IMG/VR virus record: IMGVR_UViG_3300049215_000527
Coordinates: 1 to 21,177 of that record
Length of the DNA stretch: 21,177 nucleotides
Strand: one strand, 5' to 3'
From: a virus
The notes below the pieces were generated by a model. It was not told where the DNA came from, made no database searches, and was given only the letters and a program-made list of their open reading frames with translations. Every line of letters begins with the position of its first letter. Position 1 is the stretch's first letter. Below, piece by piece: positions 6,502 through 15,053 of the stretch. A program made the position numbers and the translations under genes.

Positions 6502-7938
6502 ATGTCAGAGAGAGAAGCCCCGCCGCCATCCAATCTTGAGGCGGAAACGAGCGTTATTGGCGCGGTGTTGCTGGACGCGAGCAACGTTGCCCGGCTATCC
6601 TGGATCACACCAGAGATGTTTACCCATCCGGGGTATGCCCTGGCCTGGCGGGTGATGAACGACCTCACCAGCGAGGGCATTGACGTGGATATATTGACCG
6701 TCACCGAGCGGATGAAGCATATCAAATATGGCGCAGAATATAGCGTCCTGCTGAATCAATCCGTTACGCACACCGCTTCCAGTGAACACGCCCGCCAGTA
6801 TGGCGCGATGGTCCTGAAGGCGTACCAGCAACGCCAATTGCTAGAACTTGCCCAGTATTTTGCCACCCAGGCATATAGCACCACCGATCCGGCGGTGGCG
6901 GGTCAACAGGGCATGACCACGCTCTCGCATCTCTTAGCCCTTTCGCCTGCCCACACCACAGGCCGCAAAACGTATTCCGAGGTGCTTGACCTGTTGCATG
7001 AGGACACGTATACCCGTGCGGAAAAGCCGGATATGACGCTGAAAACGGGTTTTGCTCGCATTGATGCGTGGTCCGGGGGCTTTGAGCCAGGACAATTTAT
7101 CCTCATTGCGGGTCGTCCTGGGAGCGGCAAATCGGCGCTGGCGCTGTCGATGGCGCGGCGTTTCGCTGGGCGCTTTCATCATCAGGGCGCGGGTGCAGTG
7201 GACGTGGTGACAATGGAGATGAGCATGCTCAGTCAGGCACGGCGCATTGTGGCGGCACGCGGCTTGCCCGTCATCGATACCCGCCTCATTCGTACAGGCT
7301 TTCGGGATGAGCAAGATGAGTTTGATGGGCAAGCCTACAGCTATTTTATGGAGATGCTAGAGGCTGACCGCGCCGAAGTGGGTGATGCGCTAGCCTTCCA
7401 CGAGGGCGTTATGACCACCGACCAACTGGCGGTGATTGCGCAAGATGCCAAGACCAACCACGGCATGCAAGTGCTGATCATCGACCAACTGGACTTGTTT
7501 GCGGATACCAACCGTAACGGCGAATATGAGCGGGTCACGAACATCAGCCGGAAACTGAAGCAACTCGCCATGCGTTTGGGTATCATCATCATCTGCTTGG
7601 TGCAACTGAACCGCGAAGTCGAAAAGCGCGGCGACAAACGTCCGCAGCTATCGGATCTGCGGCAATCAGGGCAGCTTGAGCAAGACGCCGATATCGTTAT
7701 GGCGCTCTATCGTCCGGCGTATTATTTCCCGCCGATTGAGGATTGGCCGGAAAAGACCAACGAGGTCTATGCGCAATGGGCCGAATTGTTGACCCTCAAG
7801 TTTCGTGATGGGCAAGCGGACGTATTGACGCCGCTCTGCTTTCAGGGCGCGGCGGCAAGTTACACGGATTGGGACGGTGACGCCTATCCCATCGGCGATA
7901 TCCGCAATTTAGTGGCAGGACGGGAGAAAATGGGATGA
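6502..7938 (+). CDS. dnaB: Replicative DNA helicase, DnaB family
   Basis: AETSVIGAVL, Walker A GRPGSGKS, MEMS, IIDQL, QLNREVEKRGDKRPQLSDLRQSGQLEQDAD, KFRDG. Confidence 0.97.
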   Translation: MSEREAPPPSNLEAETSVIGAVLLDASNVARLSWITPEMFTHPGYALAWRVMNDLTSEGIDVDILTVTERMKHIKYGAEYSVLLNQSVTHTASSEHARQYGAMVLKAYQQRQLLELAQYFATQAYSTTDPAVAGQQGMTTLSHLLALSPAHTTGRKTYSEVLDLLHEDTYTRAEKPDMTLKTGFARIDAWSGGFEPGQFILIAGRPGSGKSALALSMARRFAGRFHHQGAGAVDVVTMEMSMLSQARRIVAARGLPVIDTRLIRTGFRDEQDEFDGQAYSYFMEMLEADRAEVGDALAFHEGVMTTDQLAVIAQDAKTNHGMQVLIIDQLDLFADTNRNGEYERVTNISRKLKQLAMRLGIIIICLVQLNREVEKRGDKRPQLSDLRQSGQLEQDADIVMALYRPAYYFPPIEDWPEKTNEVYAQWAELLTLKFRDGQADVLTPLCFQGAAASYTDWDGDAYPIGDIRNLVAGREKMG

Positions 7939-9426: not shown

Positions 9427-9918
9427 ATGCGCGTATTATCCTTAACCCAGCCCTGGGCGACGTTGGTGGCCTGTGGCGCGAAAAAGATCGAGACTCGTTC
9501 CTGGCAGCCACCTAAGGCCCTCATCGGCCAACGTATTGGCATCCACGCGAGCAAAGGGCTGGCTGATATGACACAGCGCGATTTCAATGATTTGTGCATG
9601 CGCCCTGTGTTTCGTGCGGCATTGGTTGCTGGGTGGAAGGCGGGCCTCATCAAGAGCGCCAAAGAGCACCTCTATCCGTGGGACTTGCCACGCGGCATGA
9701 TCCTCGCCACCGCACGCATCACGGGGTGTTGGTCAACGAATGATGAGGCATTGGTGGATCGGCTGCCAGATGCAGAGCGGGCGTTTGGGAATTATGCCTA
9801 TGACCGCTACATGTGGGCGCTCGATGAGGTGCATGCGCTGGCTGAGCCGATTGCCGCCAAAGGTGCGCTGGGACTGTGGACGTGGCAGCCCCCTGAAGGA
9901 TGGGAGGTGGCAGCATGA
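9427..9918 (+). CDS. ASCH domain protein
   Basis: LSLTQPWATLVACGAKKIETRSW, IGIHASK, AKGALGLW. Confidence 0.92.
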   Translation: MRVLSLTQPWATLVACGAKKIETRSWQPPKALIGQRIGIHASKGLADMTQRDFNDLCMRPVFRAALVAGWKAGLIKSAKEHLYPWDLPRGMILATARITGCWSTNDEALVDRLPDAERAFGNYAYDRYMWALDEVHALAEPIAAKGALGLWTWQPPEGWEVAA

Positions 9919-10451
9919 CCGAACGTGTAGTGCATGTGATGAAAGACGCATATGATTGCTACATTGGCCGTGCCGACCGCTTCCGCCACCTACCCAAGAG
10001 CAAGTGGCACAACCCCTTCGTCATCGGCAAACATGGCGACCGTGCCGAGGTGCTGGCCCGCTACGAAGCATACATCCGCGAGCGGCCCGACCTCATGGCG
10101 GCGTTGCCGGAATTGCGGGGTCTGACGCTCGCGTGCTGGTGTGCAGAGAAGGGCGGCGTCGGTGTCGATGATGAGTTGGTGTGTCATGGGCAGGTGCTCT
10201 TGCGCCTGCTCAGGGAGACGACGCCGATGCTGACGTTGCCACAGGGTCAGTGGTTCGCCCGCAATGGCCCCGGCACGCGCTGGCACATCACCACAGGGCA
10301 TGGCACAGGCATCTGTGGCAAGGTGTTGCACATTGATGCGAAGGGCATGGGGCAACAGGCAGTGCCAGGCGACGTGTGCAAGCGATGCGCACGGCTGGCA
10401 GGCAAAACGAGTTTGCCACATATTGCAGAAATTGGTGGTACTAGGGCTTGA
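9915..10451 (+). CDS. DUF4326 domain protein with C-terminal Cys/His module
   Basis: YDCYIGR...SKWHNPF...ELRGLTLACWC...CHGQVL, then WH...CGK...CKRC. Start at ATGA 9915. Confidence 0.88.
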   Translation: MTERVVHVMKDAYDCYIGRADRFRHLPKSKWHNPFVIGKHGDRAEVLARYEAYIRERPDLMAALPELRGLTLACWCAEKGGVGVDDELVCHGQVLLRLLRETTPMLTLPQGQWFARNGPGTRWHITTGHGTGICGKVLHIDAKGMGQQAVPGDVCKRCARLAGKTSLPHIAEIGGTRA

Positions 10452-10480
10452 CATTGAATTGATATGGGTGTATAATTCAA
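10448..10480 (+). promoter_or_regulatory. Perfect consensus sigma70 promoter with overlapping inverted repeat
   Basis: TTGACA 10448-10453, 17-nt spacer, TATAAT 10471-10476. IR ttgaatt 10454-10460 / aattcaa 10474-10480. Confidence 0.92.
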
Positions 10481-10520
10481 ATGTCGATAGGGACAAACAA
10501 AACTAAAGAGGAACGAAACA

Positions 10521-10802
10521 GTGATTGACTATGATGACCAGTTGACTTACCACGCCGATCATTCAGCCTATGAGGCGGTAACGCAAGACATAGATGGACG
10601 TGCTGGCATTCTTTCAGTAAATGAAAGCGAATTCGCTGAGGTGGTTGATCGATCTCTCAAGGACGGCGAATTTAGTGACTATGAAGATGCCAAAGAACAT
10701 TATCTGAACATTGCTCTTTGGATCAATCTCGTTGGAGACAATCCTTTTGTATCCTTTGATGTCGATGCTGATGTTGACGAAGAGGATGAAGATAAGGAGT
10801 GA
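10521..10802 (+). CDS. Very acidic 93-aa protein (candidate DNA mimic / anti-defence protein)
   Basis: GAGGA RBS, GTG start. Hand count 17 D + 11 E versus 3 K + 2 R. AT-richer than flanks. Confidence 0.8.
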   Translation: MIDYDDQLTYHADHSAYEAVTQDIDGRAGILSVNESEFAEVVDRSLKDGEFSDYEDAKEHYLNIALWINLVGDNPFVSFDVDADVDEEDEDKE

Positions 10803-11038
10803 GCAATAAACATCGCGGCGCACCCCCAGGCAATCGCAACGCCGCCAAAGAGAAACCAGGCTTGCGCGGCACCTTCTATCTCAATGCCGCCGATCTTGAA
10901 GTTGTCGATGCCGCGCTGGTGGCGCAACTCAACTACCATCCGAGTGATGCCGAGCGGCTAGAATTCGCTCGGCATCTCATGCACATGGCACTTCGTGCGT
11001 TGCGCGACAAGCAGGATAATGAGCCGATCATCCTGTGA
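10799..11038 (+). CDS. Small putative DNA-binding protein (GAPPGNRNAAK arm plus ribbon-helix-helix-like core)
   Basis: AAGGAG RBS, GTGA overlap. RGTFYL strand followed by two amphipathic helices. Confidence 0.7.
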   Translation: MSNKHRGAPPGNRNAAKEKPGLRGTFYLNAADLEVVDAALVAQLNYHPSDAERLEFARHLMHMALRALRDKQDNEPIIL

Positions 11039-11063: not shown

Positions 11064-11453
11064 ATGAGCGAACCTGAGACTTTGGGGATGTTGGTGCGGC
11101 ATGTGTGGATAGCCTGGGCAAAAGAGCAACCGGATGTTGCAGAGCACCCGAACTGGCTGACGGAATGGGCGGATCTGGCAGACCGTGACCGTGAGGTTGA
11201 TAGTCGCATCGGTATGGCAGTGGCAGCGACCTATGAATCAGAACTGGCGGCGTTGCGGGCATGGCGTGCGACTGCGGAGCCGTTGCTGCGGACGTTGGGG
11301 AATCAGGACGTACAGATGACCTATGATGAAAACTACGAATGCCCGCTTGCGTGCGGGGCATATGTTGATCATCCCTCGTTCGCCCACGAACACGCCCCCA
11401 CCTGTCCCATCACCCTGGCGCGGGCATTGCTGGCGACGGGAGGGCAGGGATGA
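11064..11453 (+). CDS. Hypothetical phage protein (W-rich N-terminus, C-terminal CxxxC...H...C)
   Basis: GAGGA RBS. LGMLVRHVWIAWAKEQP...WL..W..L...DREVD.RIG pattern. Confidence 0.75.
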   Translation: MSEPETLGMLVRHVWIAWAKEQPDVAEHPNWLTEWADLADRDREVDSRIGMAVAATYESELAALRAWRATAEPLLRTLGNQDVQMTYDENYECPLACGAYVDHPSFAHEHAPTCPITLARALLATGGQG

Positions 11454-13042: not shown

Positions 13043-13984
13043 GTGATGGGGACAAAGCTACAAATCGTCGTACCTGAGACGCCCTACACCCCGATCATTC
13101 GGATGGTGCTTGATGGCTTGGATAGTCTGCATTCCCAGCGGGCCTATGAACGGGCCTTAAACGACTTTCTGGCCTGGTATCATGAGGCGGGCCACCGCGA
13201 ATTGAAACGCAGCATTGTTGCGAGTTATATCGCCTATCTGCGCGATAGCCTGGGAATGGCCCCTGCTTATATCAATCTGCGCCTCGTTGCTATCCGGCGT
13301 TTAGTGCGTGAGGCGGCGGAAAATAACCTGCTTGATCAGCAAACGGCTATGGCTATCGAGCGGCTCAAGGGGGTGCGGGATGAGGGGCATCGCACGGGGG
13401 TGTGGCTTACTCGTGGCCAGGCGACCGACCTCATCAATACTCCTGACACGGCAACGGTGAAAGGATTGCGGGATCGGGCCGTGCTGGCAACGCTCATCGG
13501 GGCCGGACTGCGGCGCGAGGAATTAACCAATCTCACGTTTGCCCACATTCAGCAACGTGATGGGCGCTGGGCCATTATCAACATCGTGGGCAAACGGAAT
13601 AAAGTCCGCAGTGTCCCGATTGCCCCGTGGAACAAAGTCTACTTAGATGCGTGGGCCACAGCGGCGCATCTCACGGAAGGGGCCATATTTCGGGCAATGG
13701 ATCGTGGCGACCATGTGACACCCAAACCGCTCTCGCCGCAGAGCATCATGGATATCGTGAAGCAGTACATTGACGAGTCTGGCTTGAGTGGGATCGCCGA
13801 TGCCGCGCCCCACGATCTGCGGCGTACCTTCGCGCAGCTAGCCCGTAAGGGCGGGGCGTCGCTGGAACAGATCTCCATTAACTTAGGTCATGAGAGCATC
13901 GAGACGACGCAACGGTACCTGGGCATCGAGCAAGATTTTATTGATGCACCCTGCGATCACCTAGGGTTACAACTCAGTGCCTAG
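13043..13984 (+). CDS. Tyrosine recombinase (XerC/XerD-like integrase/resolvase)
   Basis: RDRAVL...GLRREE (R), GKRNK (K), HDLRRT (HxxR), LGH, TQRY (Y). N-terminal SAM-like region. AAGGAGG RBS. Confidence 0.95.
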   Translation: MMGTKLQIVVPETPYTPIIRMVLDGLDSLHSQRAYERALNDFLAWYHEAGHRELKRSIVASYIAYLRDSLGMAPAYINLRLVAIRRLVREAAENNLLDQQTAMAIERLKGVRDEGHRTGVWLTRGQATDLINTPDTATVKGLRDRAVLATLIGAGLRREELTNLTFAHIQQRDGRWAIINIVGKRNKVRSVPIAPWNKVYLDAWATAAHLTEGAIFRAMDRGDHVTPKPLSPQSIMDIVKQYIDESGLSGIADAAPHDLRRTFAQLARKGGASLEQISINLGHESIETTQRYLGIEQDFIDAPCDHLGLQLSA

Positions 13985-14076
13985 TCTTGTATATAAGGTA
14001 GGGGCTTGACAGCGTGTAAGGGGAATTAAACGACATTGGAGAGCACTAGCCATTCAGTGCCGCAACCATAACCATA

Positions 14077-14085
14077 TGGTATACT
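14077..14085 (+). promoter_or_regulatory. Extended -10 promoter for the XRE gene
   Basis: TGgTATACT in an AT-rich intergenic region. Confidence 0.5.
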
Positions 14086-14133
14086 ATCCATAAGCAAGCC
14101 TTGTGGTGATGTTGTTGATTGAGGAGCCTCCCC

Positions 14134-14409
14134 ATGACCGATCCCGCTCGCCCCCCCCGCTTTGCCCCAGGTGAAATGAAACGGCTGCGTAAATCGGCGG
14201 GCCTCAGCCAAGAGAAGGTTGCCGAATTGATGCAGTATTCCGTGTGGCAGATTCGCCGCTGGGAAAAGGGTACCCCCATCATCAGCCTAGAGAACGCCGA
14301 ACACTTCTGCCGTATCATCAAAGAACGTGCCATGCGCGAAGACACGTTGCGGAATGACATTGACACCCTCTCCTTCCCCCAGCAACCCCCACTGGAAAAA
14401 GCCTCCTAG
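14134..14409 (+). CDS. XRE-family HTH transcriptional regulator
   Basis: MKRLRKSAGLSQEKVAELMQYSVWQIRRWEKG. GAGGAG RBS. Confidence 0.9.
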   Translation: MTDPARPPRFAPGEMKRLRKSAGLSQEKVAELMQYSVWQIRRWEKGTPIISLENAEHFCRIIKERAMREDTLRNDIDTLSFPQQPPLEKAS

Positions 14410-14537
14410 AACGCCCCAGTATTGTGCGGTGTTCCGCTCTGGTGCCAACGCCCCATCTCCTGTACGCTTGATATGGGTGAGTGTGCGGTGTCTTTTGCCT
14501 TTCTGGCCGTTACGCTCTCCTTATCGGAGGCGACGCC

Positions 14538-15053
14538 GTGGCGAAAGTCCAGAAGCTGCCAGCCAAAACCACCCTGAATACCGATACCCTCACGGGCGAA
14601 CGCTTGAGCTATCGCCCTGGCACCGTGCGCCTGCCCACGCCCGATGACGACCGCATCTGCTATCCCCACGGCGATCCCCAATGGCTCAATGGCTATCGGG
14701 TGGCCCTGCCCCTGCGCCTGCACACTCGCACCCCCGAAGGCCGCTTAGGCGCGCCCACGTTCGGGCGACGCACGATGCAGTATCTGGCCAGCCAAGACCC
14801 CAGAAAAGTCTATCAGGAACACACTGAGTACGAGTTGCGCAACTGGTGGACGCCGCCGTGGGCCGAACGGGAGTTGTACGCTTTCTATGATGCGGAGGCC
14901 GTCGATATCGTGCTGAGTGTGGTGCGTGATGCGCAAACCTGGGAAGAGGCGACCCGTGGTGTGCAGCGCCCGATAGCCGAGTGCAAGGCCATCATGCGCA
15001 ACATGCGGCGCCACTGCCAACGGCTCATCACCGCTGGCCAGCGCGCGGCCTAA
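14538..15053 (+). CDS. Hypothetical protein, possible late-transcription regulator
   Basis: GGAGG RBS with GTG. C-terminal TWEEATRGVQRPIAECKAIMR is HTH-like. Sits at the early/late boundary. Confidence 0.6.
   Translation: MAKVQKLPAKTTLNTDTLTGERLSYRPGTVRLPTPDDDRICYPHGDPQWLNGYRVALPLRLHTRTPEGRLGAPTFGRRTMQYLASQDPRKVYQEHTEYELRNWWTPPWAERELYAFYDAEAVDIVLSVVRDAQTWEEATRGVQRPIAECKAIMRNMRRHCQRLITAGQRAA

Follow-up and report, generated by a model that had tools for sequence, protein, structure and literature searches.

The DNA analysed here (the window) is the first 21,177 nucleotides (nt) of the 85,269-nt IMG/VR record IMGVR_UViG_3300049215_000527 (genome label G000), a linear record with a GC content of 0.59 and a completeness estimate of 83%. 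Our subject is a short block in which a sigma-70-type promoter and an A-rich leader precede a gene for a strongly acidic protein of 93 amino acids (aa) and, coupled to it, a gene for a 79-aa protein. A sequence-only reading had taken this block for an acr-aca-like moron that encodes a new anti-defence protein and its autorepressor. Here we describe the anatomy and composition of the block, together with a match between the type of promoter spacer and the family of the candidate regulator gene associated with it. Feature coordinates are collected in Table 1.

The promoter and its two coupled genes

The promoter has exactly the TTGACA-17-TATAAT form that had been described, and it begins within the upstream stop codon, as had also been stated: the TGA of the DUF4326 gene (10449-10451) falls inside the -35 hexamer. 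It is the only site in the window that agrees with the consensus at 12 of 12 positions. Across both strands of the 85-kb genome, we found two such sites, compared with approximately 0.002 expected from base composition. The inverted repeat reported over the spacer and the -10 element is present, with perfect arms of 7 bp (TTGAATT at 10454-10460 and AATTCAA at 10474-10480) that extend imperfectly to 15 nt on either side (10450-10464 and 10471-10485). A Shine-Dalgarno sequence, AAGAGGA (10506-10512), lies in the leader 8 nt 5' of the GTG start codon of the acidic gene. The leader RNA showed no fold beyond those of shuffled sequences and no Rfam match. Searches of viral, metagenome and genome collections with a 19-mer from the leader returned chance matches in coding regions, none of which had a promoter 5' of it; a degenerate 16-mer searched against viral contigs likewise gave coding-region chance matches only, with no promoter upstream.

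The product of the first gene is as acidic as had been claimed, with 28 aspartate and glutamate residues, 5 lysine and arginine residues and 10 aromatic residues, an isoelectric point (pI) of 4.05 and a net charge of -23. Among approximately 116 crudely called genes, it is the most acidic, at -0.247 charge per residue, with the next at -0.147. The gene also has the lowest GC content at third codon positions (GC3) of this set, 0.383 compared with a genome median of 0.655, and its overall GC content is 0.436 compared with a genome median of 0.59. The coupling to the 79-aa gene consists of a GTGA stop/start overlap, as had been proposed. The 79-aa gene itself is backbone-like in composition (GC 0.575, GC3 0.625). 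The earlier description of the block as AT-richer than its flanks thus applies to the promoter, the leader and the acidic gene, but not to the 79-aa gene, which resembles the flanks.

The acidic protein is an orphan in every collection that we searched. tblastn found nothing in 50,697 phage records and 72,556 plasmids, and a word-indexed search of 5.8 billion clusters recovered the protein itself only. Apart from the protein itself, a full HMMER search of 1.84 billion representatives gave matches to two repeat proteins and no credible homologue. One of the two is a 3143-aa RTX/cadherin adhesin with seven matched stretches (expectation value [E] = 5e-7), which we weigh below. The other, a 384-aa repeat protein without a Pfam family, matched in five stretches (E = 7.8e-5), and we took it as a repeat-summed artefact. 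The ESM Atlas gave nothing usable. The known anti-restriction and anti-CRISPR DNA-mimic families (Ocr, ArdA and the Acr families in Pfam and PHROGs) gave no match to the protein. A single-sequence AlphaFold2 (AF2) model predicted three strands, two helices and a disordered tail of aspartate and glutamate (D/E tail), with a predicted local distance difference test (pLDDT) score of 62.8; on such a model, with its disordered tail, the charges cannot be mapped as a carboxylate surface array.

For the 79-aa protein, an AF2 model built from two sequences (pLDDT 66) contains a disordered basic arm (residues 1-23, including GAPPGNRNAAK), an extended segment at residues 24-29 (GTFYLN) and helices at residues 30-44 and 50-73. 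This strand-helix-helix order agrees with the earlier description of the protein as ribbon-helix-helix (RHH)-like, whereas family support is weak: Pfam RHH_1 matched in register in one homologue only (P0008) and below threshold (E = 0.047; 14.1 bits compared with a cut-off of 20.5). A PDB profile search and Foldseek gave no significant match for the 79-aa protein, the nearest RHH-type chain being the N-terminal domain of TraM (E = 3). Judging from the model, the protein is probably RHH-like.

Spacer type follows regulator family

A search of the phage's own genome showed that the perfect TTGACA-17-TATAAT promoter and its leader occur once more, at 44047-43997 (minus strand). The two copies are similar on both sides of the spacer, with 17 of 20 nt identical immediately 5' of the -35 element and 36 of 44 nt identical after the -10 element (10477-10520 aligned with 44018-43975, minus), including AATGTCGATAGGGACAAAC and the Shine-Dalgarno sequence. 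By contrast, their spacers are unrelated (6 of 17 nt identical). The spacer of the second copy, ATACATTGCAGCAATGTAT, is a perfect 9-1-9 palindrome, ATACATTGC-A-GCAATGTAT, a result reached by 4 of 2000 shuffles. This second copy drives three genes: the outer two encode acidic proteins of 101 aa (pI 4.17) and 94 aa, and the middle one a 180-aa protein whose C-terminus (residues 141-174) weakly matches the RHH antitoxin family VAPB_antitox (E = 0.0025). No homology joins the first gene of one cassette to that of the other, or any cargo protein to another. The 94-aa acidic protein of the second cassette has a weak match to DinI.

Profile searches of the same 5.8 billion clusters indicated that the 79-aa family has four members in total, none of which bears a name, the other three being homologues with 53-61% identity in phage-like contigs (L016, L017 and L001). 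Two of these contigs carry promoters related to that of the window. In L016, the stop codon of the 80-aa homologue is followed by a hairpin and then, at a distance of 30 nt, by a perfect TTGACA-17-TATAAT, which has a related A-rich leader. Its spacer is identical to that of the window at 13 of 17 positions, which a fraction of 0.00012 of shuffles reached. The L016 promoter drives three low-GC small genes, two of them with acidic products, encoding proteins of 132 aa (with a zinc-ribbon-like C-terminus), 85 aa (pI 4.6) and 65 aa (pI 4.3). None of the three products is similar to the acidic cargo of the window; the cargo therefore varies. All three are further orphan cargo candidates. The L017 promoter matches the consensus at 11 of 12 positions, shares 11 of 17 spacer positions with the window, has the leader ATTGTCGTTAGGGACA and heads the operon that ends in the 79-aa homologue. 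A hairpin also stands upstream of it: the 13-nt inverted repeat 5' of this promoter and the upstream hairpin of the window have AACGAGTTT in common. The sequence GGGTAC, part of the conserved upstream element of the window, also precedes the promoters of L016 and L017. The GTG of the acidic gene aligns with the ATG of three homologous promoter modules.

The flanks are thus common to both copies within the genome, whatever the regulator, whereas the spacer is common between genomes beside a gene of the 79-aa family and is replaced where a different RHH-like gene follows, as in the second copy. This mosaic of shared flanks and regulator-matched spacers is the signature expected if the spacer acts as an operator and the RHH-like protein is its cognate binder, and the tracking of spacer type with regulator type supports a cognate regulator. 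The module is duplicated within the same genome and present in other phages; its promoter and leader are native to the lineage and reusable, and did not arrive together with the gene. Only the acidic open reading frame (ORF) is foreign DNA, set exactly at the start codon of the native module. The right part of the spacer also recurs as an exact 12-mer, TTGATATGGGTG, downstream of the XRE-type gene, with approximately 0.01 exact matches expected per genome; this copy may be a second site for the spacer-binding factor.

The three homologues occur in a setting of their own. Each is the last gene of its operon (3/3), overlaps the preceding stop codon and is followed by a terminator hairpin. The operons encode, in order, an SNF2 helicase, a small ORF, a PAPS-reductase/DUF3440 (IbrA-like) protein, a ParB_N (IbrB-like) protein and, in two cases, an ORF of about 186 aa before the homologue; the short contig L001 shows only the ParB_N gene, a 185-aa ORF and the homologue. 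The 185/186-aa ORFs of L001 and L016 are 56% identical. None of the three operons contains an acidic gene. As for the neighbours of the 79-aa gene, for which the sequence-only reading had proposed a guilt-by-association search, a different small cargo stands behind a matching promoter in L016, but L017 and L001 lack such cargo. The DUF4326 gene is unrelated to the gene 5' of the L001 homologue, and the 129-aa gene that follows the 79-aa gene in the window is unrelated to the L016 132-aa gene. Because neither flanking gene is related to its counterpart, the insertion site does not lend itself to a simple comparison.

IMG/VR yielded no related loci for the 79-aa protein, the profile of its family, its 129-aa neighbour or the 180-aa product of the second cassette. 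Among 401 sampled Chloroflexota genomes, there was one weak, distant relative of the 79-aa protein (E = 1.4e-5 per genome). This relative is a 94-aa protein (L048, 1435-1719, minus strand; genome G360) with an N-terminal KGNRNAAK arm and an RHH-like pattern, and its gene lies directly 5' of a long ORF with a Tn3-type transposase-like N-terminus.

Interpretation and rival explanations

We favour the reading that the locus is a self-regulated accessory cassette on a promoter-leader module native to the phage lineage, a tentative view to which we give slightly less than an even chance. According to this model, the module (at about 10400-10520) would provide strong sigma-70-type transcription and efficient translation, and specificity would reside in its 17-nt spacer. 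The spacer and the -10 region would be bound by the 79-aa protein, which has a basic N-terminal arm and is probably an RHH dimer or tetramer; because this protein would be translated from the same mRNA by stop/start coupling, it would damp its own operon as Aca repressors do. The first gene would have reached the module by horizontal transfer from a low-GC source, its insertion falling exactly on the start codon. Its acidic product, with a net charge of -23 and a D/E tail, would most likely block a basic nucleic-acid-binding surface of a protein of the host or of a rival element, and would thus act in counter-defence or host takeover, one option being DNA mimicry. The protein is a reasonable candidate for such a blocker because of its charge density and D/E tail, its foreign composition, the strongest type of promoter in front of it and its Aca-like partner. 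An anti-defence or DNA-mimic function is nevertheless a plausible guess, and a true anti-defence activity of this particular protein seems to us somewhat unlikely.

By analogy, the locus would best be filed, as a candidate, among acr-aca-like self-regulated accessory operons with an RHH-type regulator. The layout that had been claimed is there, with a strong promoter, an operator-like spacer, a small orphan gene and then a small RHH-like gene, but the 79-aa gene is found elsewhere without any acidic gene.

Several results weigh against the self-regulated cassette. The 7-nt arms of the inverted repeat are only moderately unusual, being reached in 73 of 2000 shuffles, and the related promoters have not kept the repeat: their best perfect arm is 5 nt, which 795-901 of 2000 shuffles equal. 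Because the related promoters keep no significant inverted repeat, the conservation of the spacer supports the idea of an autorepressor better than the repeat does. The comparison of promoters, for its part, covers four promoters and two regulator types, a small sample. The RHH assignment is weak, with one sub-threshold Pfam match and a two-helix monomer model of pLDDT 66. In three of four contexts, the 79-aa gene ends a long DNA-metabolism operon and does not stand behind small cargo. We found no terminator between 11038 and approximately 14088, so the promoter may serve a longer operon that reaches the integrase gene. Finally, the acidic protein has no match in Pfam (E up to 10), PHROG (E up to 0.1), NCBIfam (E up to 1) or PADLOC, and a Foldseek search against the PDB and a VIA wide search found no structural match for its AF2 model, a low-confidence fold.

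The long stretch free of terminators is what would be expected of a general developmental promoter, an internal one serving the whole downstream block (the 79-, 129-, 70-, 163-, 143- and 109-aa genes and perhaps the integrase gene). Under this explanation, which we consider unlikely but deserving of real weight, the 79-aa protein would regulate phage timing at several promoters, and the acidic gene would be a recent passenger unrelated to the regulator. A 6-kb DNA-metabolism operon starts at the homologous promoter in L017, L016 has its regulator gene and its promoter in separate transcription units, the spacer 12-mer recurs at 14467-14478 near lysogeny genes, and the 79-aa gene has the composition of the backbone, all of which fit such a role. 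However, the leader occurs at two promoters only in 85 kb, the second of which has another spacer and its own RHH-like gene, and the cargo right behind the promoter is variable, low in GC and small in two phages, which is the signature of accessory genes. A strong promoter with an RHH autorepressor is also typical of toxin-antitoxin (TA) loci, as for RelB (PMC2812701). The locus could accordingly be viewed as a TA-like, abortive-infection or superinfection-exclusion module, in which the RHH protein would be an autorepressing antitoxin-type partner and the 93-aa or the 129-aa product the effector; the phage is temperate, with an integrase gene, and the RHH-like domain in the second cassette weakly matches an antitoxin family. 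We regard this as improbable, given that Pfam, NCBIfam and PADLOC contained no toxin, antitoxin or defence match for the 93-, 79-, 129- and 70-aa products, that the effector candidates are strongly acidic, unlike most small toxins, and that the 79-aa homologues have no conserved partner gene. No better placed is the proposal that the 79-aa protein is a ParG/omega-type centromere-binding protein or DNA-handling accessory, a partner of ParB-like/IbrB-like proteins rather than a dedicated transcription regulator. In three contigs, its gene overlaps and directly follows a ParB_N gene or the 186-aa gene beside one; the disordered basic arm and strand-helix-helix order resemble ParG; and the N-terminal GNRNA motif resembles motifs of terminase small subunits, with a weak Atlas lead to PF10668. 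By contrast, neither a ParA-type nor a ParB_N gene adjoins the 79-aa gene in the window, and the spacer match ties the family to promoters.

Two further explanations concern the acidic gene itself. On the HMMER match to the RTX/cadherin adhesin, its product would not be a DNA mimic; it would be a calcium-binding beta domain of the cadherin-like type standing on its own, which is a known non-defence fold. The protein is in register with the 94-aa repeats of the adhesin at DxDG, F.V, DYE and L.I (35-43% identity over 46-63 residues), and a repeat profile scored it at 21 bits, compared with 11 bits or fewer for 5000 shuffles. However, the E value sums seven near-identical repeats, and a single repeat has an E of approximately 35 at database scale; one such protein was matched among the many cadherin-repeat proteins in the library; there was no Pfam cadherin, Big or PKD match at E up to 10; and the AF2 model, at low confidence, puts two helices where cadherin domains have strands. 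Having examined pairwise alignment, Pfam at E = 10 and the repeat profile, we rejected this lead as statistically unsupported at database scale, and we consider the explanation very improbable. It is scarcely credible, in turn, that the 93-codon frame is not a real gene, in which case promoter and leader would serve the 79-aa gene and a long untranslated region would precede it, even though no homologue of the protein turned up anywhere and every known copy is identical. The ORF is likely a real gene because such a frame is unlikely to stay open by chance in 42%-GC DNA, a strong Shine-Dalgarno sequence lies 8 nt 5' of the GTG and this start is aligned with the ATG of three modules; in addition, its stop codon exactly overlaps the next start.

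A bolder extension of the self-regulated cassette, which we think quite unlikely, is a portable 'expression socket' with an exchangeable spacer: a conserved block of approximately 120 nt, made up of the hairpin, GGGTAC, the consensus -35 and -10 elements and the A-rich leader with its fixed start codon, in which the spacer is swapped to suit a cognate RHH regulator and foreign orphan genes are plugged in at the start codon. The acidic protein would be the founding member of a new family of counter-defence proteins. Each copy in a genome would be under separate control, yet all would be equal in the strength of their transcription and translation.

The closest precedent for the locus appears to be the RHH regulator Aca14 of the Pasteurella multocida csx20-aca14 operon, an RHH-type Aca that has been established experimentally (NAR 2026, PMC13551039). 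Aca14 binds an inverted repeat over the -10 element, both in front of its own operon and in front of an anti-defence operon next to it (PMC13551039). As at our locus, the Aca14 operons have a strong promoter with a repeat over the -10 element, with small cargo first and the small RHH-type gene last. As in L016, a similar site lies in the promoter of a neighbouring operon that carries other small cargo and, as at the loci linked to the 79-aa family, the cargo varies between elements. By contrast, the 79-aa family has four members, and no known acr gene adjoins any of them. In three of the four loci, the 79-aa gene also closes a long SNF2/IbrA-like/ParB-like operon, and the related promoters have not retained the inverted repeat of the window. 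Aca1, Aca2 and other helix-turn-helix (HTH)-type Aca repressors act on acr promoters (PMC9410906, PMC8633003). They follow the same logic, in which a very strong promoter gives fast early expression and the last gene of the transcript encodes the repressor that damps it, but the 79-aa protein is RHH-like and not of the HTH type, and we found no counterpart in the 10480-10520 leader to the structured leader RNA reported for Aca1 and Aca2.

With Ocr, ArdA, AcrIIA4, AcrIF2, Arn and Ugi, the acidic protein shares small size, dense negative charge (approximately -0.25 per residue here) and an early or accessory position in a phage. It differs from these DNA mimics in that it has no sequence or fold similarity to them (Pfam, PHROG, Foldseek and VIA, the last two with a low-confidence model). 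Morons are promoter-gene-terminator insertions in phage genomes. Like the morons of the Hendrix type, the acidic gene is an extra gene of deviant composition (GC3 0.383) that stands between backbone genes and has its own promoter. Calling it a moron, as had been done, is nevertheless apt in part only, since the gene lacks its own terminator, its promoter is native to the lineage and used at least twice in the genome, and it is coupled to the next backbone gene.

If the self-regulated cassette is the right reading, the locus would provide a small phage protein that is new, highly acidic and without relatives, and that is a good candidate for a new inhibitor of a nucleic-acid-binding defence or housekeeping protein of the host. 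The 79-aa family would be another family of RHH-type Aca-like regulators with a recognisable promoter signature, and that signature could be used as bait where homology searches fail, to draw more accessory and anti-defence cargo out of poorly sampled environmental phages. The two promoters that share a scaffold and differ in spacer within one genome would also be a natural experiment in how operators gain their specificity. Should the reading be wrong, what remains is a strong internal promoter with an orphan passenger gene. Many similar candidates exist.

Genome setting and minor observations

All the convincing genes around the acidic/79-aa pair are on the plus strand (Table 1). From its gene content, which includes an integrase, an XRE-type HTH protein, a terminase and a portal protein, we classify the phage as a temperate-type tailed phage. 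The integrase and XRE-type genes look like a lysogeny module. The region is present as identical copies in two Logan assemblies, ERR9963788 and SRR24565814, with no sequence variation among the copies.

Table 1. Positions of the features discussed (window coordinates unless a contig or genome label is given)
Feature	Position	Strand	Remarks
Upstream hairpin GGCAAA-acgag-TTTGCC	10401-10417	+	About 30 nt 5' of the -35 element, within the 3' end of the DUF4326 ORF
Upstream element GGTAC..GGGC	10437-10447	+	Adjoins the -35 element; conserved
Sigma-70-type promoter, 12/12 consensus	10448-10476	+	TTGACA 10448-10453; 17-nt spacer TTGAATTGATATGGGTG 10454-10470; TATAAT 10471-10476
Inverted repeat TTGAATT-N13-AATTCAA	10454-10480	n/a	Spans the spacer and the -10 element; candidate operator
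A-rich leader AATGTCGATAGGGACAAAC...AAAGAGGAA	10480-10520	+	Conserved, unstructured
Acidic orphan gene	10521-10802	+	93 aa; GTG start; C-terminal tail DVDADVDEEDEDKE
79-aa gene	10799-11038	+	GTG overlaps the TGA of the acidic gene as GTGA
Exact 12-mer copy of the right part of the spacer, TTGATATGGGTG	14467-14478	+	After the XRE-type gene, just 5' of the ORF at 14481-15053
Second cassette	G000 44047-42870 (= L005 385-1562)	-	Outside the window
Operons of the 79-aa homologues	L016 3397-6004; L017 3975-6004; L001 35-1275		
L016 promoter and small genes	L016 6250-7293		Phage-like contig, JGI 3300062134
Two DNA methyltransferase genes	Window	+	
DnaD-like gene and DnaB helicase gene	DnaB 6502-7938	+	
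DUF4031, ASCH and DUF4326 genes	DUF4326 9900-10451	+	DUF4326 directly upstream of the promoter
Tyrosine integrase gene	13043-13984	+	
XRE-type HTH gene	14135-14409	+	
Terminase small and large subunit genes and portal gene	Window	+	

Between the 79-aa gene and the integrase gene lie several genes without an assigned function, with products of 129, 70, 163, 143 and 109 aa. The first of these, at 11064-11453 and 3' of the 79-aa gene, encodes a 129-aa acidic protein that has no family match. Its N-terminal pattern HVWIAWAKEQ...NW...REVD may resemble the RyR-type domains of phages. Past the integrase gene, 18 nt beyond its stop codon, GGGCTTGACA at 14002-14011 reproduces the -35 context of both perfect promoters. 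This site has no good -10 element; a TATACT and a hairpin follow in the 13985-14134 interval, and then the XRE-type gene.

Outside the window, at about 73459-75710 of G000, we observed a cluster of near-consensus (11/12) promoters on both strands, which is probably a regulatory switch region. Behind one of these promoters is an ORF starting MARLRVKEIAE, which may be the N-terminus of an XRE-type HTH protein. Small low-GC genes at 73815-74078 and 75655-75810 of G000 have the next lowest GC3 values after that of the acidic gene.

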